Part shown: piece after piece, positions 31,864-53,410 of the stretch | Numbering within the stretch: position 1 is the stretch's first letter | Layout of the letters: each line of letters starts with the position of its first letter | NCBI GenBank assembly: GCA_029858565.1 | Contig: JAOUEV010000001.1 | Location: 96,001 to 160,000, forward strand | DNA from: Nitrospirota bacterium | GTDB lineage: Bacteria; Nitrospirota; UBA9217 | Length of the DNA: 64,000 bases | Reading direction: 5' to 3' | Program-made: the position numbers and the translations under genes | Notes under the pieces: generated by a model | Databases searched by the model: none | Seen by the model: the letters and a program-made list of their open reading frames with translations, nothing else | What the model was told of the DNA's origin: nothing

Positions 31864-31940
<77 letters not shown>

Positions 31941-32007
31941 GTTTAATTGCGGATTGCGGATTGTAGATTGCGGATTGCACGTTAATCCACAATCCCAAAT
32001 TTAGAAT

Positions 32008-32084
32008 GCGCCTGTAGCTCAGCTGGATAGAGCAACAGCCTTCTAAGCTGTGGGTCAGGGGTTCGAGTCCCTTCAGGCGCGCCA
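32008..32084 (+). tRNA. tRNA-Arg(TCT)
   Basis: cloverleaf, anticodon TCT, CCA end. Confidence 0.96.
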
Positions 32085-32236
32085 ATTCAAATGCGGAACG
32101 GGGAATGCGGAATTTGGAATGAAATACCGCAGATCCCTGACCCGAGGGGTCAAAGGGGAGAGGCTCCCCTGAGATGAATATCGGGGGAGATTCCAGAGGG
32201 GGCTGGCCCCCGCTGGGGAGCCCTTTAGGGGCGACT

Positions 32237-32268
32237 GGTCAGGGGTTCGAGTCCCTTCAGGCGCGCCA
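32237..32268 (+). repeat. 32-bp direct repeat of tRNA-Arg(TCT) 3' end (att-like)
   Basis: GGTCAGGGGTTCGAGTCCCTTCAGGCGCGCCA identical to 32053-32084. Confidence 0.9.
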
Positions 32269-32405
32269 TATAACAATTGCGGATTTGTAAAACCGCAGCA
32301 CCAATAACTGAAAAGTGTATTCCTGATTGCAGGGTGTGATAGTCGGGCCGGAACGAAATGATTACAATCCGCAATCCGAAATCCGCAATCGGGAAATAGA
32401 AACAT

Positions 32406-32482
32406 GGTGGGCGTAGCTCAGTTGGTAGAGCACCAGGTTGTGGCCCTGGTGGTCGCGGGTTCAAGCCCCGTCGCTCACCCCA
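32406..32482 (+). tRNA. tRNA-His(GTG)
   Basis: G-1, anticodon GTG, CCA end. Confidence 0.96.
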
Positions 32483-32573
32483 ATCAATTGCAGTGCGGAG
32501 TGCAGAGTGCGAAGTGCGGAGTGAAGCATCGTCATTCATTCCGAATTCCGCATTCCGGACTCCGCATTTTATT

Positions 32574-32650
32574 GCGCCCGTAGCTCAGCTGGATAGAGCG
32601 TTGGCCTCCGAAGCCAAAGGTCCCGCGTTCGAATCGCGGCGGGCGCACCA
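32574..32650 (+). tRNA. tRNA-Arg(CCG)
   Basis: TTGGC-CTCCGAA-GCCAA anticodon arm, CCA end. Confidence 0.95.
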
Positions 32651-32747
32651 TCTAATTGCGGATTTTCGATTGCGGATTGCGGATTGCAATACATAAAGCG
32701 GATTTTTGTAAATCCGCAATCCGAAATCTACAATCCGAAATCGTCAT

Positions 32748-32824
<77 letters not shown>

Positions 32825-32991
32825 TAAGTAAATTTTGATTTCGGAATGCGAAATGCGGAATGAAAAGCGTTGTTTCGCTCCGGCGAGCGAGGAAAAAATT
32901 CCTCTGATAACCCCATTTTCCTGTTGCATCCGGTACTAAAGATGCGTATAATACGCTCCTTGTCGCAAGGTATTGTATTCCGTTTTTTAAC

Positions 32992-33067
<76 letters not shown>

Positions 33068-33184
33068 TATAAAACACCGAGAGCAGTGGGCGACTGAACG
33101 CACACTGCTCTCATTGTTATTGCGGCATTCAAAGGGCAGGTCGTCTGGAGAACCTATCCCGGGGCCATGCGTTCCTATAACGTC

Positions 33185-33267
33185 GCGAGAGTGGCGGAAC
33201 TGGCAGACGCGCTGGTCTTAGAAGCCAGTGGGCAACCGTGGGGGTTCAAGTCCCCCCTCTCGCACCA
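33185..33267 (+). tRNA. tRNA-Leu(TAG)
   Basis: anticodon TAG, variable arm, CCA end. Confidence 0.95.
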
Positions 33268-33367
33268 TACATCAAATGCGGATTGCGGATTGCGGAATGC
33301 GGAATGAAATAATCCCATCCCACCACGTTCAATCTCTGCTTTATCAATAGCGAACAGGAGCAAGGAC

Positions 33368-42274: not shown

Positions 42275-44104
42275 CTATGGCACATAGAGCGCCTTCACCA
42301 TGCTGACAATGGCCTTCCAGGAGATTCCCTCGTAGTCCAGCAGTTCACCGGATTTCCCGCTCCTGGGAATACTTCTGATCGCAAGGGAATGGATCGGCAC
42401 GGGACGTTTTGAAAGGGTTGCCCGCACAGCATCGGCGATGCCGCCCTCGGGAACATGGTCTTCCACAACGATGATGCATCCTGTGTCGTCCGCCGCCTGT
42501 CTGATCGTCGCGATGTCGACCGGTTTGACGCTGTAAAGGTCGATCACGCGGATGTATATATCCTCCTTTTTCAGCTCTTCATAGGCCTTCAGCGCCTCAT
42601 GGACCGTAATGCCGGCTGCGACTATCGTCGCCATATCCCCTGAGTTCGACCGCAGGACCTTGCTGCCGCCTATCCAGAAAGCTTCGTCGTTGCGATATAA
42701 AACCGCGGTAGGATTGCGCGTTGTCCTGAGATAGCTGATGCCGGTGAATTGCGCCATCAGTTCCGTCAGTTTTTCCGCGGACACGGCGTCCGAGGGATAG
42801 AGCACCACGCTCCGCTGGACGCTTCTGAACATGGCCAGGTCCTCCAGCCCCATCTGGGAGGAGCCGTCCTCGCCGATCGACACGCCGGCGTGGGATCCGC
42901 AGAACTTGATGTTCCCGTTGGAATAGGCTGCCATGCGCACCTGGTCAAAAGCACGGGTAAAGAAAGCCGCAAAGGTGGATACAAAGGGGGTCTTGCCCCG
43001 GAGAGCCATACCGAGCGCGGCGCCTACCATATTCTGTTCAGCAATGAACATTTCAAAGAACCGCTCGGGATGTTTTGCCTTGAACAGCTCTGCATAGGTC
43101 GAATTGCTCACCTCGCCGTCAAGGACCGCCAGATCGGGATACTGCACTGCAAGGCGCGCCAGGGCCGTGCCATAGGCATAGCGCGTCGCGATCGGTTTGT
43201 CAGGATCATAGAGCGATGCCGGGGCCTTGATACTTTGCTGGTATGCCGGTCTCTCGTTGTCGGGCTTTGTCAGTGAACCGTGAACCGACTTGTCCACGGG
43301 CCCCAGCTCTTTGAGCGCCAGCTCCAGTTCATCCGAATTCAGCGCTTTGCCATGCCAGCCGTTCTTGTTCTCTATGAAAGAGACGCCCTTTCCCTTGATG
43401 GTCCGTGCGATGATCATGCAGGGCTTGTCGCCGGACTTCATTGCCTGGCCATAGGCGGTCTTGATGAGATAAGGGTCATGGCCGTCGATCTCAACCGCCA
43501 GCCAGCCGAATGCTTCTGCCCGCTTTCGGTAGATATCAAGAGCATGTCCGTACATGGTCTCTCCCCGCTGACCGAGCCGGTTCACATCCACGATCGCCGT
43601 GAGGTTCCCGAGCTTATAGTAGGAAGCGATCGCCATGGCCTCCCAGACCGATCCTTCGGCCATTTCGCCGTCACCCAGAAGCACATAGGTGCGGTAGGGG
43701 AGCTTGTCGAGGAACTTCGCGTTCAGCGCCATGCCTACGCCGATCGACAGACCCTGTCCAAGCGAGCCGGTGGCGGCTTCTGTATACCTGAACGCGGGCG
43801 TAGGATGGCCTTCCAAAGGACTTCCGAACTTCCTGAGGCTCATAAGTTCATCGTCGGTGACAGCGCCTGCCGCTGCCCAGAGCGCGTAAAACAGCGGGGA
43901 AGCGTGGCCTTTTGAAAAAATGAGCCTGTCGTTGTTGGGATGGCCGGGATCGTCAAGGTCATAGCTGAAGATGCCGCTGAAGAGAAGCACGGTCATCAGG
44001 TCGGCCGCTGAAAGGGAGGATGTGGGATGGCCGGAACCGGCCCTGGTCGTCGAGACCAGGATATTATAACGGATCAATTTTGCGAGTGCTGATAGATCGT
44101 TCAC
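42275..44104 (-). CDS. tkt: transketolase
   Basis: GSGHPTS, SKGHA, GSLGQG, GDGE..EG, IAEQN, GEDG.S. Confidence 0.92.
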   Translation of the reverse strand: MNDLSALAKLIRYNILVSTTRAGSGHPTSSLSAADLMTVLLFSGIFSYDLDDPGHPNNDRLIFSKGHASPLFYALWAAAGAVTDDELMSLRKFGSPLEGHPTPAFRYTEAATGSLGQGLSIGVGMALNAKFLDKLPYRTYVLLGDGEMAEGSVWEAMAIASYYKLGNLTAIVDVNRLGQRGETMYGHALDIYRKRAEAFGWLAVEIDGHDPYLIKTAYGQAMKSGDKPCMIIARTIKGKGVSFIENKNGWHGKALNSDELELALKELGPVDKSVHGSLTKPDNERPAYQQSIKAPASLYDPDKPIATRYAYGTALARLAVQYPDLAVLDGEVSNSTYAELFKAKHPERFFEMFIAEQNMVGAALGMALRGKTPFVSTFAAFFTRAFDQVRMAAYSNGNIKFCGSHAGVSIGEDGSSQMGLEDLAMFRSVQRSVVLYPSDAVSAEKLTELMAQFTGISYLRTTRNPTAVLYRNDEAFWIGGSKVLRSNSGDMATIVAAGITVHEALKAYEELKKEDIYIRVIDLYSVKPVDIATIRQAADDTGCIIVVEDHVPEGGIADAVRATLSKRPVPIHSLAIRSIPRSGKSGELLDYEGISWKAIVSMVKALYVP

Positions 44105-44156
44105 AAACTCCTCCTCAAGAAACCCAGCGTTAGAACGCGGACGTTCTGCTCCCGCA

Positions 44157-44672
44157 CTAGGGCAGCAGGCTTTTTACATCCACCGGCGGCTCGTCCTGGG
44201 ACCCTTCTCCCTTGGCCTTGCCTCCGATCTCCAGTCCTGCTTCGCGGTAATAATTGTACCCCGGATACTTGCCCGGCCCGCTGATAAGCAGGTCCTCCTT
44301 CTCATACACCAGGTTCGTGCGGAGATATTCTCCCATCTCGAAGTCCGGCGTGAGCTGGATCGCGCAGGTCGGGCAGGCTTCTTCGCAGTACCCGCAGAAG
44401 ATGCAGCGGGAGAAATTTATCCGAAAGAACTCCGGGTAGCGCCTTCCCATTTGGTCTTCGGTCGCCTGGAGCGAAATGCAGTCCACCGGGCAGGCAACCG
44501 CGCAGAGATGACAGGCAACGCAACGCTCCCGTCCGTCAGGATCGCGGGAGAGAATGATCCTGCCGCGCCACCGGGGCGCGAGCGTGGAGCGCTCCTCGGG
44601 GTACTGGACCGTGATCCGCTTCCGGAACATGGTCATGAAGACCGTGAGTATGGATCGCAGAATACTAAACAT
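44157..44672 (-). CDS. nuoI: NADH-quinone oxidoreductase subunit I
   Basis: two CxxCxxCxxxCP; QYPEE. Confidence 0.95.
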
Positions 44673-44808
44673 GGTTGTTGACACTGAGGACACTGACAAG
44701 GCCTTTGACACAGATAACGGCGGATAGGAGCCTATGAAAATGCTGGATGAATCTGTTACAAATATCACGCATCTTCATAGCCGTTCTCTGAGTCTTCAGT
44801 GTCTACAA

Positions 44809-45762
44809 CTATCCTTTCATCAGTATCCATGCACCAGTCAGTAGCAAATTCCCCACCGCCAGAGGCAGGCAGACCTTCCATCCAAAGGACATCAGCTGGT
44901 CGTACCTGGGCCGGGGAAGACTGGCGCGCAGCAGGATGAACAGACAGATGAAAAAGAACGTCTTGAGCGTGAACCACACCAGCGGCGGCAGCCAGGGGCC
45001 GAGCCAGCCGCCGAAGAACAGGACCGTGATGAGCGACGAGATCAAGGTGATGCCGAGATATTCGCCGACGAAGAACAGGCCGAACTTGAGGCCCGAGTAC
45101 TCCGAGTGAAAGCCCGCGACCAGTTCGCTTTCCGCCTCGGGCAGGTCAAAGGGCAGGCGGTTGGTCTCCGCGGTCCCGGCGATCAGGAACAGCATGAAGC
45201 CGACGAACTGATAGCGGATGAACCAGCCGTCCCGCTGGGCTTCGATGATGCGGTTCAGGTCAAAGGACCCGGCGAGCATCACCACGCCCATGAGCGACAG
45301 GCCCATGAAGGCTTCGTACGAAAGCATCTGGGCTGACGATCGGAGCCCGCCGAGGATCGAGTACTTGCTTCCCGAGGCCCATCCCGCGAGAACGACGCTG
45401 TACACGCCAAGTGACGACATGGCGAGGAAGAAGAGCAGCCCCATGTTCAATTCCACGACCTGGATGCCCGGAGCAAAAGGCACCACGGCAAAGGACATGA
45501 GCGTGACCGTGACGATAATGGCCGGCGCCATGATGAAGACCGGTTTGTTCGCGAAAGGCGGGACCCAGTCTTCCTTGAAGAGGACCTTGATCATGTCCGC
45601 AACGACCTGGAGCAGGCCGAAGGGGCCGACGCGGTTCGGGCCGTACCGGTCCTGCCAGAGCGCCAGCAGACGCCGTTCGAGCCAGATCAGCATCCCGCCA
45701 ACGGCCAGGAGGGTGAAGAGGACGGCGAAGGAGACCAGTATGTGAGTAAGGCTGTTGCTCAT
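44809..45762 (-). CDS. nuoH: NADH-quinone oxidoreductase subunit H
   Basis: ERR...QDRYGPNRVG, PFDLPEAE.EL..GF..EYSG. Confidence 0.96.
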   Translation of the reverse strand: MSNSLTHILVSFAVLFTLLAVGGMLIWLERRLLALWQDRYGPNRVGPFGLLQVVADMIKVLFKEDWVPPFANKPVFIMAPAIIVTVTLMSFAVVPFAPGIQVVELNMGLLFFLAMSSLGVYSVVLAGWASGSKYSILGGLRSSAQMLSYEAFMGLSLMGVVMLAGSFDLNRIIEAQRDGWFIRYQFVGFMLFLIAGTAETNRLPFDLPEAESELVAGFHSEYSGLKFGLFFVGEYLGITLISSLITVLFFGGWLGPWLPPLVWFTLKTFFFICLFILLRASLPRPRYDQLMSFGWKVCLPLAVGNLLLTGAWILMKG

Positions 45763-45907
45763 GGCAATACGGATAGAACAGAAGGACCATTGATCGCACG
45801 AAGGCACGAAGTCACGAAGAAAGGCAATTTCACTCTCCTGGTCTTGATCAGAGTTGACTCCTCCGTGTCTTCGTGGCTTCGTGCGAGACTGCTTTTGACA
45901 TCGTCCG

Positions 45908-48463
45908 CTACATTGTCATCCGAGGATCCTGCTGATCGTCCATCGGTCTTCTCTTGCCAAGAGCAGGCGATAAATTACTCAATTCCTCAGATCCGAAAAT
46001 GAAGTATTGCGGTGATTCTGCCGGGTCTTCACTAAGATCGATCCGGAAATACTCTGATTGGCCGCCTATCATTTTGATCAATCTCGTGCCTGTGCTCTCT
46101 TTGCGAAGGTCTCCGCCCACTTCCTGCTGGAACCTGTTCAACGCCTGGACCGAGTTCCATCCCGGGGACCAGTACCGGGAAATGAGCGGAGCGGGCGGCT
46201 GCTGTTCCGAGCCTTCCATGGAAAAGGCGAGCGGGCTGTCCGCGTCATACGCGGGTTTTGGTTCATGAACGGTTCGGTCGGCGATCATGGAGGTCCTGCC
46301 GCTGTAACGGTGCGACTGGCGGGGAACCTTCTGGCCGGCGATCCGGAAACCTGCAGGAGGCACCAGATCGGCCAGCTCCGCGAAGAGCGGCAGTTCCCGG
46401 CTCATCTTGCGGATAATGTCGTCTAAGGTCGCGAAACCGCCGGGAGCCGGGTGTTGCGTCGCCATCATTATAGCATTGATCCACTTCCAGCCTGCTTGAA
46501 TATCTCCTCTTGGCACGAAGACCTCATTGTACCGCTGCGGCCGGGTCTCGTAATTGATCAGCGTTCCGGATGATTCTGCAAAGGTCGCCGCGGGCAGGAC
46601 AACGTCAGCCTGGTCAGCTGTTCGATGCATGATATGGTCAAGAACGATGATATTCTTCGCTCTTCCGAGGAACTGTTCGACGCTTGCTTCGTCAGCTCTG
46701 CGGTAGAGGTCGTTCTCCAGGATAATGACCGTGTCCGCTAAACCATCCTGCATGACCGTGAATGCCTCGTCAAGGGTCCTTCCGCCAAGGAGTGCTGCAC
46801 CTAGGGTGTTGCATTCATGTACTGCGAATGCTAATTGCACAGCTTTTCCCTTTAGCTGGAGCGCCCGGGCGATGTTCGCTGCTGTTTGTACTACTCCCGT
46901 GCTTTGGCAGCCTGTCCCGGATACGATCAGAGGATGCTTGGCATTCATGAGAACCGTTGCGATCTCTTTGGCAAGAGCGTCAACGTCCTGCCCCCTCACT
47001 TCGGTCCTCTCTCCAGAGGATAAGGGAGGGATATTGGGATCGAGCTTCTGAGATATCGCTGACGCCAGCCGAACAATGTCCTGGATCGGAACGTGCGCTG
47101 TCTTTGCCGCGACATCATCGAGCCGGGTCTCTGCAGGAGAAATGATGTAGACCGGGCTTTTCGCGCTCTGCCCTGCGTTCCGCACGGCATTATCGTCCCA
47201 GAGCGGCAGTTTCATGGCTGCCGCGATCTCGAACTGTTTGTTCCTGCTTGCCTGACGCACTGCAAGGGCCATCAGGGGGGCTGTATTCGGTAGGTCCTCG
47301 CCAAGTATCAGGACAGCATCGGCGGCCTGTATCTCTCGGAGCGAAGGAGAAGAGGCAGGGCTGTTCTTCTGAATGTCGATAATCAGCGAAACAAGGGATT
47401 GTTCCTCGTTCCCAATGCCGCTGAAAAAGCTATTCTCCCCGGCCAGCGTTCTGAGAGCGAAGTTCGATTCCAGCGACGCACGGGGCGAGCCTATGGCTAT
47501 GACGCCTTTTGCTTTGGACAGGATATCGGCGATATGGGTGAGTACCGTCTCTCTATCAGCTGGCTTCCCCCCCTCGCCCCGGCCCTCTCCCGCGGGGGGA
47601 GAGGGAGATTTTACCAGGGGAGTGCGGATGCGCTTATGGCTGTTCACGAACTCGTACCCGAACCTGCCCCGGTCGCAGAGGAAATAACCGTTAATGTCGC
47701 GGTTATAGCGGTTCATGATGCGCCGCAGAGACCCGTATCGTTCACCGGCGATGGTATTGCACCCCACGCCGCAATGGACGCAGATGGACGGCGCCGTCTG
47801 GAGGTCCCACTTGCGGGTGTAATGCTCCTTGAGGGTCTTGTCCGTGAACACGCCGGTGGGACAGATCTCGATCAGGTTGCCGCTGAACTCGCTTTCGAGG
47901 GGGCCGTCCGCGTGCCTGCCGAAATAGACGTGGTCGTGGGCGCCAAAGACGTTCAGGTCCCTGCCGCCGGCCACACCTCGATAGAAGCGGACGCAGCGGT
48001 AGCACTGGATGCAGCGGTTCATCTCATGATTGAGAAAGGGGCCCAGGTCCTGGTTCTGGTGCGTGCGTTTTCTGAAACGGCTCCGCCGATAATTATGGCC
48101 CGTCATGACCGTCATATCCTGGAGATGGCATTCTCCTCCTTCGTCGCAGACCGGACAGTCATGGGGATGGTTCAGCATGAGCTGTTCGACAATGCCCTTT
48201 CTGAACGCCCGGGCTTCGGGGTCGTCCACGGAGATGCGCAGTCCTTCGGAAACCGGCGTCATGCAGGACATGATGATGCGGCCCTTGGCATCCTTGTCAT
48301 CCTTGTACTGCTTCACCGCGCATTGCCTGCATGCGCCCACGGCATGCAGGGCCGGGTGCCAGCAGAAGTAAGGCAGGTCAAAGCCCAGGGAGAGGCAGGC
48401 CTGGAGGAGGTTCTGGTCAGGCTTGACCTGGTGGGGTTTGTTGTCGATAAAAATCGTCACCAT
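45908..48463 (-). CDS. nuoG: NADH-quinone oxidoreductase subunit G
   Basis: FCWHP, GACRQC, HPHDCPVC, RCIQCYRC, CVHCGVGC. Confidence 0.95.
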   Translation of the reverse strand: MVTIFIDNKPHQVKPDQNLLQACLSLGFDLPYFCWHPALHAVGACRQCAVKQYKDDKDAKGRIIMSCMTPVSEGLRISVDDPEARAFRKGIVEQLMLNHPHDCPVCDEGGECHLQDMTVMTGHNYRRSRFRKRTHQNQDLGPFLNHEMNRCIQCYRCVRFYRGVAGGRDLNVFGAHDHVYFGRHADGPLESEFSGNLIEICPTGVFTDKTLKEHYTRKWDLQTAPSICVHCGVGCNTIAGERYGSLRRIMNRYNRDINGYFLCDRGRFGYEFVNSHKRIRTPLVKSPSPPAGEGRGEGGKPADRETVLTHIADILSKAKGVIAIGSPRASLESNFALRTLAGENSFFSGIGNEEQSLVSLIIDIQKNSPASSPSLREIQAADAVLILGEDLPNTAPLMALAVRQASRNKQFEIAAAMKLPLWDDNAVRNAGQSAKSPVYIISPAETRLDDVAAKTAHVPIQDIVRLASAISQKLDPNIPPLSSGERTEVRGQDVDALAKEIATVLMNAKHPLIVSGTGCQSTGVVQTAANIARALQLKGKAVQLAFAVHECNTLGAALLGGRTLDEAFTVMQDGLADTVIILENDLYRRADEASVEQFLGRAKNIIVLDHIMHRTADQADVVLPAATFAESSGTLINYETRPQRYNEVFVPRGDIQAGWKWINAIMMATQHPAPGGFATLDDIIRKMSRELPLFAELADLVPPAGFRIAGQKVPRQSHRYSGRTSMIADRTVHEPKPAYDADSPLAFSMEGSEQQPPAPLISRYWSPGWNSVQALNRFQQEVGGDLRKESTGTRLIKMIGGQSEYFRIDLSEDPAESPQYFIFGSEELSNLSPALGKRRPMDDQQDPRMTM

Positions 48464-48468
48464 AGACT

Positions 48469-48947
48469 TTTAGCCACGGAAGAGGCGGATACTTCTATAA
48501 AAAAGCACAGTAAACCTCTTTTGCGAACGTAAGGATTATCTAAAGTACACGACGGACTATTTTCAATTTATCAGCGAAATTGATGAGAAGGCCTACTTTC
48601 TTGCCGGTGGCCTTCAGGTAATTGATAAGCTGTGCTTCGTGAATCTTTGCCAGCTCAGAAACTGCTTTAAGTTCGACTATGACGGCGTCCTCGACAAGAA
48701 GGTCAGCGAAATATTCACCTACGAGCTTTTCCTCAAAGAATACGCTGATGGGAGCTTGTTGGCCCGCTTGCAGGCCTTTTGAAGCCAGCTTGATCATCAT
48801 GGCATTCTCATATACTTTCTCGGCAAAACCAAAGCCCAGCTGATTATGAACGTCGTAGGCAGCAGAAATGATCTTGTCGGTAATATCGGCAAGATGCAGG
48901 TTCGATTCTGTTGTTGTCATGTGTTATCCGCCTCTTCCGTGGCTAAA
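48469..48947. mobile_element. 479-bp element with perfect 23-bp terminal inverted repeats carrying a GxxExxY gene
   Basis: TTTAGCCACGGAAGAGGCGGATA (48469-48491) / TATCCGCCTCTTCCGTGGCTAAA (48925-48947); mobility inferred. Confidence 0.65.
48540..48920 (-). CDS. GxxExxY protein (PD-(D/E)XK nuclease superfamily)
   Basis: VH..LG.GF.EKVY, ADLLVE..VIVELKA, AQLINYLKAT...GLLINF. Confidence 0.92.
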   Translation of the reverse strand: MTTTESNLHLADITDKIISAAYDVHNQLGFGFAEKVYENAMMIKLASKGLQAGQQAPISVFFEEKLVGEYFADLLVEDAVIVELKAVSELAKIHEAQLINYLKATGKKVGLLINFADKLKIVRRVL

Positions 48948-50223
48948 TAGATTTCCAGGGACAATGTTTGTTGTTGATATGCGATTCAAAATCCTCCAGG
49001 AAATACTTCAACGCGCTCTGGAGAGGCTCCACCGCTCCCGGCGCCAGGGCGCAGAAGGTATTGCCCGGTCCGAGAAGCCTGCACTGTTCCGTAAGCAGGT
49101 CCAGATCTGACATTTCGCCCTTGCCTGTCTCAATGGCCTGGAGCGTCCTTTCGATCCATGGCAGGCCTTCGCGGCAGGGCGTGCACCAGCCACAGGACTC
49201 GCGGCGGAAGAACTTTTCCAGACTATGCACGAACCCGACCGGGCAGGTCCGGTCATCGAGCACGGTGATCGTCCCGGTGCCCATGCGGCTGCCCGCTTTC
49301 ATGACCGAGTCGAAGTCCATTCTGACGTTCATGTGATCCGGCGTCAGGAAGTCGGTTGAAGCGCCGCCAGGCATAAATGCCCTCAGGCGGTAACCATCCA
49401 TCATGCCCCCGGCCTGCTCCTCGATCAGGTCGCTGACCATCGTTCCCATGGGCAATTCCCAGAGACCCGGGTTCCTGACCCTGCCGCTGACTCCATAGAT
49501 CTTCGTACCGCTATCATTGATCCCGCCGATCGACTTGAACCAGTCAGCACCGTTGTTCACGATATGGGGAAGGTTTACCACCGTTTCCACATTGTTCACT
49601 ACCGTCGGCCGTCCCCAGAGACCGGAGACCTGGGGAAAGGGCGGTTTGGCGCGCGGGGTGGCGCGTTTGCCTTCCAGCGCATTTATCAAGGCGGTCTCTT
49701 CGCCGCAGATATACCTGCCGGCGCTGGTGTGGATCCGCAGATCAAGCGAGAATCCGGAGCCGAGGATGTTTTCGCCCAACAGCTTATTTTCGTATGCTTC
49801 TGCAATGGCCTTGTTCAGCAGCAGCTCCGCACGGCCGTATCCCTGGCGCAGGAATATGTACGCATGGGAAGCCTGGATCGCATAAGCGGCCACGACGATG
49901 CCTTCAATGAGCTGGTGAGGATCTCCTTCGAGCAGGTAACGGTCCTTGAACGCTCCTGGCTCCATTTCATCGGCATTCACAATGAAGTACTTTTGTTTTG
50001 GCGCGTTCTCACCCATGGGCACAAAGCTCCACTTCATGCCTGTGGGAAAACCCGCGCCGCCGCGACCCCGAAGGTTCGATGCCTTTACTTGGACCTGCAC
50101 ATCCTGCGGGGACATGGTCGAGAGCATCGTACGGACGGCCCGGTATCCGCCGGCCTGCTCGTATTCCATGAGCGATAGCGGGTCCTCGTTGGGCCGGATG
50201 TTCTTTGTCAGTGGTCGTTCCAT
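48943..50223 (-). CDS. nuoF: NADH-quinone oxidoreductase subunit F
   Basis: LRGRGGAGF, NADEMEPG, YICGEETAL, ESCGWCTPCREG. Confidence 0.96.
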   Translation of the reverse strand: MERPLTKNIRPNEDPLSLMEYEQAGGYRAVRTMLSTMSPQDVQVQVKASNLRGRGGAGFPTGMKWSFVPMGENAPKQKYFIVNADEMEPGAFKDRYLLEGDPHQLIEGIVVAAYAIQASHAYIFLRQGYGRAELLLNKAIAEAYENKLLGENILGSGFSLDLRIHTSAGRYICGEETALINALEGKRATPRAKPPFPQVSGLWGRPTVVNNVETVVNLPHIVNNGADWFKSIGGINDSGTKIYGVSGRVRNPGLWELPMGTMVSDLIEEQAGGMMDGYRLRAFMPGGASTDFLTPDHMNVRMDFDSVMKAGSRMGTGTITVLDDRTCPVGFVHSLEKFFRRESCGWCTPCREGLPWIERTLQAIETGKGEMSDLDLLTEQCRLLGPGNTFCALAPGAVEPLQSALKYFLEDFESHINNKHCPWKSI

Positions 50224-50232
50224 AGAATCTTA

Positions 50233-50325
50233 TTTAGACACTGAGGACACTGAAAAAATATGAATGACTCAACATCAGAAGTTTCTTCGTCTTCTCATAT
50301 GTTGTCAGTGTCCTCAGTGTCTAAA
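50233..50325. repeat. 93-bp element with perfect 21-bp inverted repeats
   Basis: TTTAGACACTGAGGACACTGA / TCAGTGTCCTCAGTGTCTAAA. Confidence 0.85.
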
Positions 50326-50326
50326 A

Positions 50327-50791
50327 TCAGCTGTATTTGCTTAATATCTCATCAATTGTTTCCGGCGTCACCGGTCCGAACAGTTCGTCGTCCACCATCA
50401 TGGCAGGCGCGCGGTCGCAGGCGCCGAGGCATGAGGCAGGGAGGAGCGTGAACCTGTTGTCTCCGGTTGTCTCGCCGTATCCGATCCCGAGCTTTGTGCT
50501 GATCAGCTTATACAGGTCATCATGCCCCAGGGACCAGCAGACCATGCTGTCGCAGAGCGCGATCACATGGCGGCCGACAGGCTTGCGGAAGATGAAGCTG
50601 TAGAACGTGGCAACAGCGTCCAGTTCGGCAGGCGTCATGGAGAGCTGCGCTGCAACATCCCGCAGGCTCGCGTCGGATACCCATCCTCGCTTTTTCTGCA
50701 CCACGCGCAAGGCCTCGATGGCCGCCGCTTCCGGCCGTTCGCAGTGCTTCAGTTCCTCGGATATTTCCTGTTTTTCCTGCTCAGTCAGCAT
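50327..50791 (-). CDS. nuoE: NADH-quinone oxidoreductase subunit E
   Basis: VATFY, CDSMVC, CLGAC. Confidence 0.95.
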   Translation of the reverse strand: MLTEQEKQEISEELKHCERPEAAAIEALRVVQKKRGWVSDASLRDVAAQLSMTPAELDAVATFYSFIFRKPVGRHVIALCDSMVCWSLGHDDLYKLISTKLGIGYGETTGDNRFTLLPASCLGACDRAPAMMVDDELFGPVTPETIDEILSKYS

Positions 50792-50865
50792 ATCCAGTCA
50801 ATTCCTGCCTCCAGGGGGGAGAGGGGCCTATATATCTGATCTTACCCTGCGTCTCCGTGTCCAAT

Positions 50866-52614
50866 TTATCTATCCAAATCCGCCAGAATAAAATCAATGC
50901 TCCCCAGGATCGCCATGAGGTCGGCGATCATCAGACCTTTTGCGATCTTCGGCACCATCTGCATGTGCGGGAACGAAGGCGTGCGGATGCGGGTGCGGTA
51001 GGAGTGGATGCCTCCGTCGCTCACGAGATAATATCCGTTGCTGCCCTTTGTCGCTTCGATGCCCATGAACGCCTCGCCCGCTGGTATGACCGGGCCCCAG
51101 GATAGGCCCAGAAAATGGGTGATCAGGGTCTCAATGTCCTTCAGGGTCCGTTCCTTGCGCGGCGGGGTCGTGAGCGGGTGATCGGATTTATAGGATCCCT
51201 CGGGCATGTTCTTCATGCACTGTTCAACGATCCGCATGCTCTGGCGGATCTCCTCGATGCGGACCACGGCGCGGTCATAGCAGTCGCCGTTCACTGCAGT
51301 GGGGATATCGAAGTCGAACATCTCGTAGCCCGAGTAAGGCCGCTTCCTTCGAAAGTCCCAATCGAGTCCGCAGGCGCGGAGACCCGGTCCGGTCACTCCC
51401 CACTCGACCGCATCTTCGAGCGAATAGGCGCCGACTCCCCGGGTCCTTCCTTTGAAGATGCTGTTCCGCATGACGATACTGTCGTATTCCTTGAGCCGGT
51501 GCGGAAGATAGGCGAGGAAATCCCTCACCAGCCGGTCCCAGCCTTTTGGCAGGTCCTGAGAAACACCGCCGATCCGGAACCAGGCCGGGTGCATGCGGCC
51601 GCCGCAGACCGCTTCGACGATCTCAAAGACCTTTTCCCGGTCAGAGAAAGTGTAGAACACCGGAGACAAGGCCCCCACGTCCTGGGCAAAGGTGCCGTAC
51701 CAGACCAGATGGCTCTGGATGCGGAACAGCTCTGCCATCATCACGCGGATAACCTTTACCCGGTCGGGCACCTCGATCCCCGCGAGCTTCTCGACCGCCA
51801 GTACATATGCCAGGTTGTTCATGACACCGCCGAAGTAGTCGATGCGGTCCGTGTAGGGAATGAAGGTGTGCCAGGTCTGGCGCTCGGCCATCTTTTCCGC
51901 GCCGCGGTGATGATAGCCGATGTCCGGGACAGCGTCCACGATCTCTTCTCCGTCGAGCTGCAGGATGATGCGCAGGAGACCGTGCGTACCCGGGTGCTGG
52001 GGGCCAAGGTTCAGGAACAGGTGGTCCGTGCCGTCCTTTGCCGGCGCCATGCCCCATTCCTCGGGCCGGAACTTGAGCGCCTGCTGCGCAATGTCCATCT
52101 GGTCCTCGGGCATGCGGAACTGTCCCATTTCCGTTGCCCGCGCGGGATGCTCCTTCCTGAGCGGGTGGCCTTCCCATGCGGGCGGCAGCAGGATGCGCTT
52201 GAGATGGGGGTGGCCGTTGAAGCGGATGCCGAAGAGGTCCCATGCTTCCCGTTCGTACCAGTTCGCGTTCCGCCAGAGTCCGGTGATGGACGGCAGGGTG
52301 TGAGTATCTCCCAGGAGCGGGACCTTGATCCTGATGTCCTCGTTCCGGTCAAAGGACAGCAGGTGGTACACAACAGTGAAATCGGACATGGGCTGGTCTG
52401 GTCTGTTCGTCCGCGTGCGTTCGTCAATGACCGTGAGGTCATAGAGCATTTTGTAGGGCCGGCCGATCTTCGTCTTGAGATGCAGGAGTACGTCGGCGGT
52501 CCGGTCAGGGGAGATCCAGAGCGTGGGGATGTTGTCCTTTGCGGGCTGTACCGCGAGGATCGCGGGGCCGAAGGAGCTGCTTAGGTCGGCGATGATAGGG
52601 TTAGGAAAAGTCAT
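50866..52614 (-). CDS. nuoC: fused NADH-quinone oxidoreductase subunit C/D
   Basis: [40 protein letters not shown]. Confidence 0.95.
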
Positions 52615-52628
52615 AAAAACAAGCCATG

Positions 52629-52784
52629 TTTTACCGCAGAGGACGCGGAGGACGCCGAGAAAAGCCTAAAAAAAGCGCAAGAGCCGATCCTGTTTTAGAA
52701 GGATAAAACTAATGCAAACAGGCTCATATGCTCCATAAGAATATATCTGACCTTTGAATTTCTCTGCGTCCTCTGCGGTGAAAA
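52629..52784. repeat. inverted-repeat element (CGCAGAG family)
   Basis: ACCGCAGAGGACGC ... GCGTCCTCTGCGGT. Confidence 0.8.
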
Positions 52785-52795
52785 AGCCGTTTTTG

Positions 52796-53410
52796 TTAGA
52801 CTTCATCGGGTGAACGCAGCACCGAAGCCTTCACCCGTTCCGCCCGCTTCATATCCCTCATGCATGGCGGTTCGGGAGCGGTCGTATCCTGCCGTCCCGC
52901 GACCCAGGACAGGGGGCGTTTCTCCTTGCCCACCTTGGCGCTCAGGAGCAGGAGCCCTTCCATGAAGGCTTCGGGCCGGGGAGGGCAGCCGGGAACGTAG
53001 ACGTCAACGGGCAGGAGCTTGTCGACTCCCTGGACCACGCTGTAGATATCGTACATGCCGCCGGAATTGGCGCAGGAGCCCATGGAGATTACCCAGCGGG
53101 GCTCCATCATCTGTTCGTAGAGCCGTTTGATCACCGGCGCCATCTTGATGAACACCGTGCCGGCCACGATCATGAGGTCAGCTTCGCGGGGCGTGCCCCG
53201 GAGCACTTCTGCGCCATACCGCGCGATGTCGTACTTGCTCGTAAGGCTGGCGGCCATCTCCACGTAGCAGCACGAGAGGCCGAAATTGAAGGGCCAGATC
53301 GAGTTCTTCCGGCCCCAGGCGACCATGTCCTCAAGCCGCGTCAGGAGCAGGCTTTGGCGCACTGCGTCGTCAATGTCTGGGATGCTGCTTCTGGTTGTAG
53401 ACCAGTTCAT
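52796..53410 (-). CDS. nuoB: NADH-quinone oxidoreductase subunit B
   Basis: [26 protein letters not shown]. Confidence 0.96.

Follow-up and report, generated by a model that had tools for sequence, protein, structure and literature searches.

The cassette at the nuoF-nuoG junction

The window analysed here is a 64,000-nucleotide (nt) stretch of a Nitrospirota genome (contig JAOUEV010000001.1, positions 96,001 to 160,000), in which a small gene of the GxxExxY family, boxed by an inverted repeat, separates nuoF from nuoG. The genes and the arms of the repeat are read here on the minus strand. The upstream host gene, nuoF, occupies 48943..50223 (TIGR01959, 579 bits) and the downstream host gene, nuoG, 45908..48463 (TIGR01973, 625 bits). 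A repeat search of the window found two arms of 23 nt between them, 48469-48491 and 48925-48947, which are 100% complementary and stand 433 nt apart. At three or fewer mismatches the 23-mer has exactly two matches in the window, against 0.00 expected from 100 shuffles.

The upstream (5') arm at 48925..48947 reads TTTAGCCACGGAAGAGGCGGATA on the coding strand and is made of two related units, CACGGAAGA and GGCGGATA. The stop codon of nuoF, a TAG at plus-strand positions 48943-48945, falls within this arm and is thus supplied by the cassette. The purine-rich GGAAGAGG of the same arm, which resembles a ribosome-binding site, ends 10 nt before the ATG (48918-48920) of an open reading frame (ORF) of 126 amino acids at 48540..48920, identified from the ORF list and with NCBIfam and Pfam profiles as GxxExxY/PDDEXK_3. 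An untranslated loop tail of 48 nt (48492..48539) leads from the ORF stop to the downstream (3') arm, the pyrimidine-rich TATCCGCCTCTTCCGTGGCTAAA (coding strand, 48469..48491), and from the end of that arm to the nuoG ATG (48461-48463) there are 5 nt with no Shine-Dalgarno-like (SD-like) run among them. The cassette as a whole measures about 480 nt. Only the 126-amino-acid ORF lies between the arms, with no DDE or Y1 transposase ORF there, and no promoter-like or terminator-like sites were found on the minus strand within the cassette. A search of 44000-53000 against Rfam returned no family; a sub-threshold microRNA-precursor match, on a hairpin between nuoE and nuoF, was taken as chance. A preliminary description drawn from the letters of the window had reported an exact 23-base-pair (bp) repeat boxing the gene, the nuoF stop and a ribosome-binding-site-like run within one arm, the other arm 5 nt from the nuoG start, and the lack of a DDE or Y1 transposase gene. 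The repeat search, the shuffles and the sequence itself agree with it on each of these points.

A predicted PD-(D/E)XK nuclease

The ORF scores far above the cut-offs of both family models (TIGR04256, 142 bits against 35; PF13366, 141.5 bits against 22, E = 2e-41). It carries the motif residues G31xxE34xxY37, D73, E83-x-K85 and Q97. Among 52 aligned sequences G29, Y37, E83, K85, Q97 and N114 are invariant, and G31, E34, D73 and H94 are conserved in at least 90%. As judged from these residues, the ORF keeps a complete PD-(D/E)XK site. An AlphaFold model of the protein is confident (predicted local distance difference test score 93.7), and Foldseek matched it to the nuclease core of Cas4 SSO0001, to lambda exonuclease and to the Hjc junction resolvase, which is of the same size as the ORF product, with modest scores (E of about 5e-4 to 3e-3, template modelling score 0.45-0.58). 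The predicted fold is that of a PD-(D/E)XK nuclease.

Other searches with this protein returned little. A PDB sequence search with a 12-sequence profile gave no matches and PHROGs had none, and PADLOC gave a single marginal match to the nuclease core of a type IIG restriction enzyme (E = 0.005). In a 2012 survey of the PD-(D/E)XK superfamily, PDDEXK_3 was entered as 'Unknown', with multiple transfers. Genes for GxxExxY proteins and for proteins of intervening sequences (IVSs) have been noticed within cas loci (PMC3936711; PMC8934634).

The same architecture at other GxxExxY genes

The genome to which the window belongs (3.92 Mb in 144 contigs; G000, with the window on contig C14) holds seven GxxExxY genes by tblastn, at 36-49% identity to the window's ORF. 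All seven are flanked by inverted repeats that differ in sequence and share one build, in which each arm consists of two to four tandem units of 7-10 nt (CACGGA, CACTGAG and ACAGGAT types). Among the units of these copies are CACGGATGAA/CACGGTTAAA, CACGAAGGA/CACGAAGTG, CACAGAG, CGCAGAGG and GCCGCAAAG. Such arrays are present in all seven copies and in most of the relatives described next.

One genome per prokaryotic species was scanned with a seven-sequence alignment, giving at least 589 relatives. The best 80 loci, at 48-66% identity, were kept as the nearest part of a larger family, and 70 of them had enough flank to be usable. Their hosts span about 18 phyla, among them Nitrospirota, Bacteroidota, Planctomycetota, Acidobacteriota, Chloroflexota, Bacillota, Thermodesulfobacteriota and Verrucomicrobiota, and include archaea (ANME-2 and Methanosarcinales) as well as the cultured Pelotomaculum propionicicum, Geomobilimonas luticola and Flavobacterium. 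Each locus was given an ungapped inverted-repeat score for 150 nt of upstream against 220 nt of downstream flank, with mismatched left and right flanks as controls. A score of at least 12 was reached by 51 of the 70 loci and 23 of 205 controls, at least 14 by 41 and 11, and at least 16 by 27 and 3, respectively. Unit motifs common to different loci (ACAGGATT, CACGGATT, CGCAGATG, CACTGA and TATGATT) inflate the control counts, and such sharing is informative in itself.

These cassettes also sit in operons in the manner seen at nuoF-nuoG. Both neighbouring genes lie on the ORF strand at 49 of the 70 loci and both on the opposite strand at 5. In the 51 loci scoring at least 12, the median distance from the stop of a co-oriented upstream gene to the left arm is 3.5 nt (at most 10 nt, or an overlap, in 25 of 38), that from the right arm to a co-oriented start is 13 nt (at most 15 nt in 23 of 42), and the median element length is 501 nt. 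The cassettes therefore lie within operons, aligned with them, and fill the spacer. On the tree of the 70 proteins, which is short and poorly resolved and on which kin share arm labels, arm type changes 21 times, against a mean of 30.3 for shuffled labels, a number so low that none of 200 shuffles reached it. ACAGGAT arms mark two clades, each covering several phyla and together six or more. Given both the few changes and the span of these clades, the ORF and its arms travel together.

Turnover at the nuo junctions

NuoF orthologues were located in 40 relatives, and the nuoF-nuoG spacer could be read in the 27 relatives' loci that have both gene ends. Besides the window's genome, 5 of the 27 carry an intact cassette at this junction (G001, of the same genus, and G012, G010, G014 and G019). 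In G017 the spacer is 309 nt long and its ORF is internally deleted. Seventeen of the 27 have unrelated short hairpins of other unit types, or plain spacers (including G003, of the same genus, and G008, G013, G004, G018, G022 and L030). The remaining four sites are empty (G015, where the nuoF stop overlaps the nuoG start, and L021, L022 and L028).

Sequence identities at the occupied junctions do not follow the host genes. G001 and G019, which belong to different NuoF clades, share 77% identity in the ORF and 71% in NuoF, whereas the window's genome and G001 share 55% in the ORF and 76% in NuoF, and G019 and G010 share 60% and 80%. The sister of G019 on the NuoF tree (support 98/96) is G015, with its empty site. 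Two ORF lineages thus occupy the junction, with an empty sister allele, and at least one lateral replacement or independent insertion at nuoF-nuoG is needed to account for it.

The neighbouring nuoE-nuoF junction is equally variable. The window's genome has an ORF-less hairpin there, G003 a full GxxExxY cassette of 463 nt with ACAGGAT-type arms, and G019, G013 and G006 spacers of 3, 7 and 22 nt; the remaining relatives have other hairpins. One of these (L003, in G009) is a 35-nt spacer with the minimal hairpin TTTTGACAGG-TAA-TCCTGTCTAAAA, with one unit per arm and a 3-nt loop, which could be an extreme relic or an excision footprint. At nuoF-nuoG, about 24 inserted nt (ATCAGGATTTTAATC[AC]GTG[TC]AAA) divide the right arm of the cassette in L004 (G012) and L012 (G014). 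The halves of the left arm pair with the separated segments, so the arms are modular and can nest. Elsewhere in the window's operon, nuoC and nuoD are fused upstream into one gene of 582 amino acids (50866-52614), and the genome has several NuoF paralogues (6 matches).

ORF-less hairpins and their arm families

Within the window, repeat search and alignment place an ORF-less sibling of the cassette in the nuoE-nuoF spacer (50233..50325, minus strand; arms TTTAGACACTGAGGACACTGA...). In alignments its sequence matches the two ends of the cassettes in G019 and G001, the start-codon region and 11 nt inside the right arm included, so that it has the look of a cassette shortened by internal deletion. 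This match and the half-deleted ORF of G017 together point to decay of ORF-bearing cassettes into hairpins. A further ORF-less hairpin, built of CACGAAG units, fills the nuoG-nuoH spacer (45794..45886, minus strand), and an imperfect one with GACACTGAGG-type arms and an inner GACACAGATAACGGCGGATA module lies in the nuoH-nuoI spacer (44680..44803, minus strand). Four consecutive nuo junctions (E-F, F-G, G-H and H-I) therefore hold one tandem-unit element each, of different or composite arm types.

Such hairpins are abundant throughout the genome. In a census, 179 of 1055 inverted repeats had periodic arms; they fall in 111 loci, 69 of which have loops of at most 200 nt. The core of the nuoF-nuoG arm was found again at 36 sites outside the cassette (shuffled mean 4.45), which fall in 32 loci, 7 of them close pairs. 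For the arms of the seven GxxExxY genes there are 15-41 further sites per arm, and for the GTGCGGA arm of a four-helix-bundle gene (4HB_C93) there are 166, with shuffled means of 2-8. The largest hairpin family, ATTGCGG, has 261 sites and no ORF in the genome. About 17 paired copies are of the GACACTGAGGACACTGA type; their loops differ, many of them starting with CTATGA(A)AAG and ending with TTCATAG. In five unrelated genomes ACAGGATNNACAGGAT has 116, 41, 115, 101 and 14 sites, often as facing pairs 100-200 nt apart, against none for the reversed control.

In the real hairpin families the purine-rich arm comes first (5'); a few long-looped pairs have the pyrimidine arm first, and these seem to combine arms from two adjacent hairpins. 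No loop similarity was seen among 56 short hairpins, save in two identical pairs at contig ends that are probably assembly duplicates, and every ORF is single-copy in the genome. Two composite hairpins on contig C135 (37124-37277 and 38516-38673), with outer GACACTGA-type and inner nuoF-nuoG-type arms, were found in a separate comparison to be 90.5% identical over 190 nt; they lie 1.4 kb apart in unrelated flanks and are the only sign of a fairly recent copy. A cluster of seven tRNA genes (Pro, Arg, His, Arg, Arg, Lys and Leu) at 31864-33305 has inverted ATTGCGG and GTGCGGA arrays in its spacers, which account for 11 inverted-repeat pairs in the census. The hairpin class is therefore also found in the spacers of tRNA operons.

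The genome has 12 matches to Y1 transposases (IS200/RAYT-like; for example C88:30680-31009, C51:46254-46577, C82:36954-37271 and C19:20093-20257). A link to RAYTs (REP-associated tyrosine transposases, where REP is a repetitive extragenic palindrome) was considered and rejected, none of the 12 being flanked by tandem-unit arms. Seven have inverted repeats of other kinds (GGGTCAGG-type repeats or GTAGGGGCGGGTTTCAAACCCGCCC palindromes) and belong to a separate repeat system.

Four-helix-bundle genes and rRNA intervening sequences

A close parallel to the cassette comes from ribosomal RNA (rRNA). The IVS in the 23S rRNA of Coxiella has a 28-bp terminal stem that RNase III cuts in mid-stem, and in its loop an ORF for S23p, a four-helix-bundle protein, which one strain has lost in part through a 176-bp deletion (Warrier et al. 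2016, PMC4990558). The 5' region of that IVS has an SD-like AGAAGA and two to three tandem GACAGAT heptamers. The RNase III cut removes the AGAAGA, and the ORF is not translated unless a ribosome-binding site is added (PMC4990558).

Genes for four-helix-bundle proteins of this kind have similar flanks in the window's genome. TIGR02436 has eight matches, four of full length and one clear partial, and these five genes have purine-rich unit arrays upstream and complementary arrays downstream (units GTGCGGA, GACGAGAGA, AATTAAG, AGGATTA and ACGACTG). As the same arms surround TIGR02436 genes, the cassette type has at least two alternative cargo genes. One of these genes (C7:9221-9535, locus L119), with arms of GACGAGAGA units, has on one side a NuoF-like gene (C7:9841-11040) and on the other a gene whose N-terminus is 2Fe-2S and NuoG-like. 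A second junction of F-G type thus holds the other cargo.

Insertion into rRNA was not seen among the genomes searched. The 80 related loci all lie outside 23S genes, and the genome's own 23S gene (C115:4773-7773) has no repeat of the cassette type and no IVS. A 23S match was obtained in 8 of 26 relatives' genomes, some of them fragments; the complete genes are about 3.0 kb and have no large insert.

Pairing of the arms

The 23-bp stem is present in both the minimum-free-energy and the centroid RNA folds (z = -3.37). Among seven cassettes of related genera at the same junction, 85.7% of cells were paired and 10 of the 23 pairs had changed on both sides, a covariation score reached by none of 500 shuffles, with slid registers 28-43% paired; the reference structure was that of the window's cassette, and the seven aligned cassettes are related. 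Pairing kept in this way fits DNA-level pairing or homogenisation of the arms equally well. Action at the RNA level is suggested by analogy, in that a stem of 23-28 bp would suit RNase III, the cassettes are co-oriented with operons and the IVS is a published precedent; the genome does have an RNase III gene (rnc). The tandem units, kept between copies while the loops drift, look like putative protein-binding arrays. The subterminal repeats of terminal-inverted-repeat (TIR) transposons are arrays of that kind and offer a comparison.

Discussion

We consider the nuoF-nuoG element to be, by a modest balance of probability, a selfish cassette of the IVS type that has settled in an intercistronic junction. 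That it is selfish or intervening, as the preliminary description had proposed, is well supported, since other GxxExxY genes have terminal inverted repeats, empty alleles exist beside decayed cassettes and unrelated hairpins at the same junction, and the ORF is incongruent with the NuoF tree. The repeats and the empty alleles were the checks that the description itself had named. Its suggestion of an undescribed mobile class is not supported in that form, as the kind is at least partly described: the element is built like the Coxiella 23S rRNA IVS (PMC4990558).

Under this scenario the cassette, having no promoter of its own, would be transcribed by read-through from the nuo operon. In the transcript the arms would form a 23-bp stem and bring the nuoF stop next to the nuoG start. 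The stem would be long enough for RNase III to cut, as it does in the similarly built rRNA IVS, and the insert would thereby be insulated or cut out and the operon would stay functional. By analogy with that IVS, it is plausible that the terminal stem neutralises the cassette in the transcript. The ribosome-binding site of the ORF lies in the purine-rich arm, so we propose that pairing would gate translation of the ORF. At the DNA level, the GxxExxY nuclease would act either at empty junctions or at the repeat arrays cognate to it, with host repair then copying the cassette in, in a homing-like manner; the nuclease plausibly supports the cassette in this way. Following fixation the ORF would decay by internal deletion and the hairpin would remain. 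The ORF-less hairpins are best read as relics of the cassette.

Several observations weigh against this reading. No target-site duplication abutting the arms was seen by eye in the own-genome copies or the relatives, only a non-abutting TCTA, and with single-copy ORFs and unrelated hairpin loops there is no sign of recent bursts within the genome. A PD-(D/E)XK nuclease is by itself unable to join DNA, and the structural matches that point to this fold are modest in score. The close fit of the arms to stop and start codons may be the mere result of insertion into very short spacers. As to pairing in RNA, the covariation result leans on a structure borrowed from the window and on related rows. 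On the coding strand of 61 related cassettes, G:U mismatches (76) were not in excess over A:C mismatches (65; p = 0.40), and 36 hairpins of the genome itself likewise had no strand bias (28 against 31). The repeats are equally good in two archaeal hosts (L101 and L115), and an RNase III model matched none of four archaeal control genomes; RNase III is therefore not the whole story. The preliminary description had held that the ends pair in DNA or mRNA, looping out the ORF and preserving expression of the operon. Folding predicts the stem, and the two strand tests gave no signal for the RNA strand, leaving the looping out and the protection of the operon as an inference.

The main rival reverses the roles of gene and hairpin. 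In an arrangement like that of RAYTs and REPINs (REP doublets forming hairpins), the ORF-less hairpins would be the main population, perhaps serving the host as intercistronic signals for the processing or stability of RNA. The single-copy GxxExxY or four-helix-bundle gene would be a caretaker that spreads or homogenises cognate arms in trans, and the nuoF-nuoG cassette would be a master copy that does not copy itself. We regard this as unlikely, with a chance that still deserves to be taken seriously, for much of the census is as it would predict: the arm type of each GxxExxY ORF and of 4HB_C93 recurs without an ORF well beyond the shuffled means, each ORF exists in one copy, and the tandem units resemble binding sites. 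Homogenisation at the DNA level would fit both the identical arms at nuoF-nuoG and the retention of arms between copies whose loops are not kept, and the absence of a G:U strand bias agrees with it. Published RAYT genes are reported to be flanked by their own REPs (PMC3116915). The behaviour of the ORFs is harder to reconcile with a caretaker, as they cross from phylum to phylum and, at a given site, can be lost or give way to others, whereas RAYTs are kept vertically, and the start-codon and 3'-end remnants of cassettes within hairpins fit decay better than independent spread. Nor would a caretaker be expected from the ATTGCGG family, the largest of all and without an ORF in the genome, or from three four-helix-bundle arm types that have no or few more copies than shuffled controls.

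It is improbable that the inverted repeat is a cis-regulatory device and nothing else, serving a small accessory nuclease gene of a defence or toxin-like kind. Pairing would then hide the ribosome-binding site and limit expression, the gene would be moved by general recombination or by other elements, and neither mobility nor protection of the operon would depend on the arms. The SD-like run in the purine arm just upstream of the ATG, with a complementary arm that is anti-SD-like, would suit such a device. So would the loss of AGAAGA from the Coxiella ORF upon RNase III cleavage (PMC4990558), and the IVS-protein and GxxExxY genes within cas loci (PMC3936711; PMC8934634) would suit a defence role. 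Against this, no defence or phage family was matched beyond the marginal restriction-enzyme core, arm type is transferred together with the ORF, and a pure regulator of the ORF leaves unexplained why many ORF-less hairpins with the same arms persist. That the gene is an ordinary, vertically inherited accessory of nuo and the repeat a chance or local palindrome is hardly credible: the gene does occupy the same junction in the window's genome and in G001, G012, G010, G014, G019 and G017, but a 23-mer pair of this kind is not expected by chance at all, the junction is empty or filled by unrelated sequence in other relatives, ORF similarity contradicts the host tree, and unrelated copies of the gene in about 18 phyla are framed in the same manner.

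With the IVS-type cassette as the favoured reading, we tentatively raise a broader possibility, about which we have real doubts. Intervening sequences of rRNA, GxxExxY genes, four-helix-bundle genes and, in many bacteria and archaea, a large share of the intergenic hairpins with purine and pyrimidine arms may form one pan-prokaryotic mobile class. Its members would be cassettes with arrays of 7-10-nt units that home into polycistronic junctions (of mRNA, tRNA or rRNA), are neutralised by their own stem, are spread or maintained through the action of their nuclease or nucleic-acid-binding protein on cognate arrays, and leave relics that shape operon spacers. We found no description in the literature of such cassettes outside rRNA, nor of GxxExxY function; this search did not take in database family notes, subscription journals or supplements, so an earlier description may exist.

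If this is correct, two large uncharacterised families, GxxExxY/PDDEXK_3 and the 23S IVS/four-helix-bundle proteins, would gain a context at the level of function. The nature and movement of rRNA intervening sequences, a question 30 years old, would become testable, as the IVS architecture would be common, located in ordinary operons and found in cultured, harmless hosts. It would also explain why small GxxExxY and IVS-protein genes occur within conserved operons and cas loci, why families of hairpins with purine and pyrimidine arms populate the intercistronic spacers of many genomes, and why such spacers differ so wildly between close relatives. If the stem does rescue expression of a split operon, it would represent an intron-like strategy that needs no ribozyme.

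Comparison with known systems

Like TIR transposons and miniature inverted-repeat transposable elements (MITEs), the cassettes have terminal inverted repeats with internal subrepeats, and their ORF-less internal-deletion derivatives far outnumber the ORF-bearing copies. They differ in that no transposase of a known class accompanies the cassette (the survey of the genome covered Y1 enzymes) and no target-site duplication is seen, and, compared with MITEs, in that the ORF-less copies have no loop sequence in common.

Homing endonuclease genes offer a likeness of a different sort. They too are small nuclease genes in sequence that may be neutralised after transcription, they re-occupy the same conserved site with presence/absence polymorphism and a phylogeny incongruent with the host, and they pass through a cycle of invasion, decay and loss. 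Homing enzymes of the PD-(D/E)XK type exist. The cassette has no ribozyme or intein, and its neutralisation would be by a plain stem, through RNase III or looping, with no ligation.

With REPIN-RAYT systems the cassettes share a single-copy gene whose flanks carry, in inverted orientation, a short palindromic repeat also found dispersed on its own between genes, and the presence of several gene and repeat families in one genome. In place of a Y1/HUH transposase the cassettes encode a predicted PD-(D/E)XK nuclease or a four-helix-bundle protein, and in place of GTAG-type REPs they have arms of tandem units. The hairpin loops are mutually unrelated, and the ORFs have been transferred between phyla.

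The rRNA IVSs of Coxiella and Leptospira differ from the cassette in their host site, which is an rRNA helix and not the intercistronic spacer of an mRNA, and in their cargo, S23p/four-helix-bundle rather than a GxxExxY nuclease of predicted PD-(D/E)XK fold. Excision by RNase III has been demonstrated for the Coxiella IVS, whereas the cassette is known from its sequence. In build the two agree in several respects: both are about 430-500 nt long, with a small ORF in the loop in sense with the host transcript, and the termini of both pair over more than 20 bp, a perfect 23 bp here. Both also have tandem heptamer-like units at the 5' side (GACAGAT in Coxiella; CACGGA, CACTGAG and ACAGGAT here) and an SD-like purine run in the arm, and share a sporadic distribution and decay of the ORF through internal deletion.

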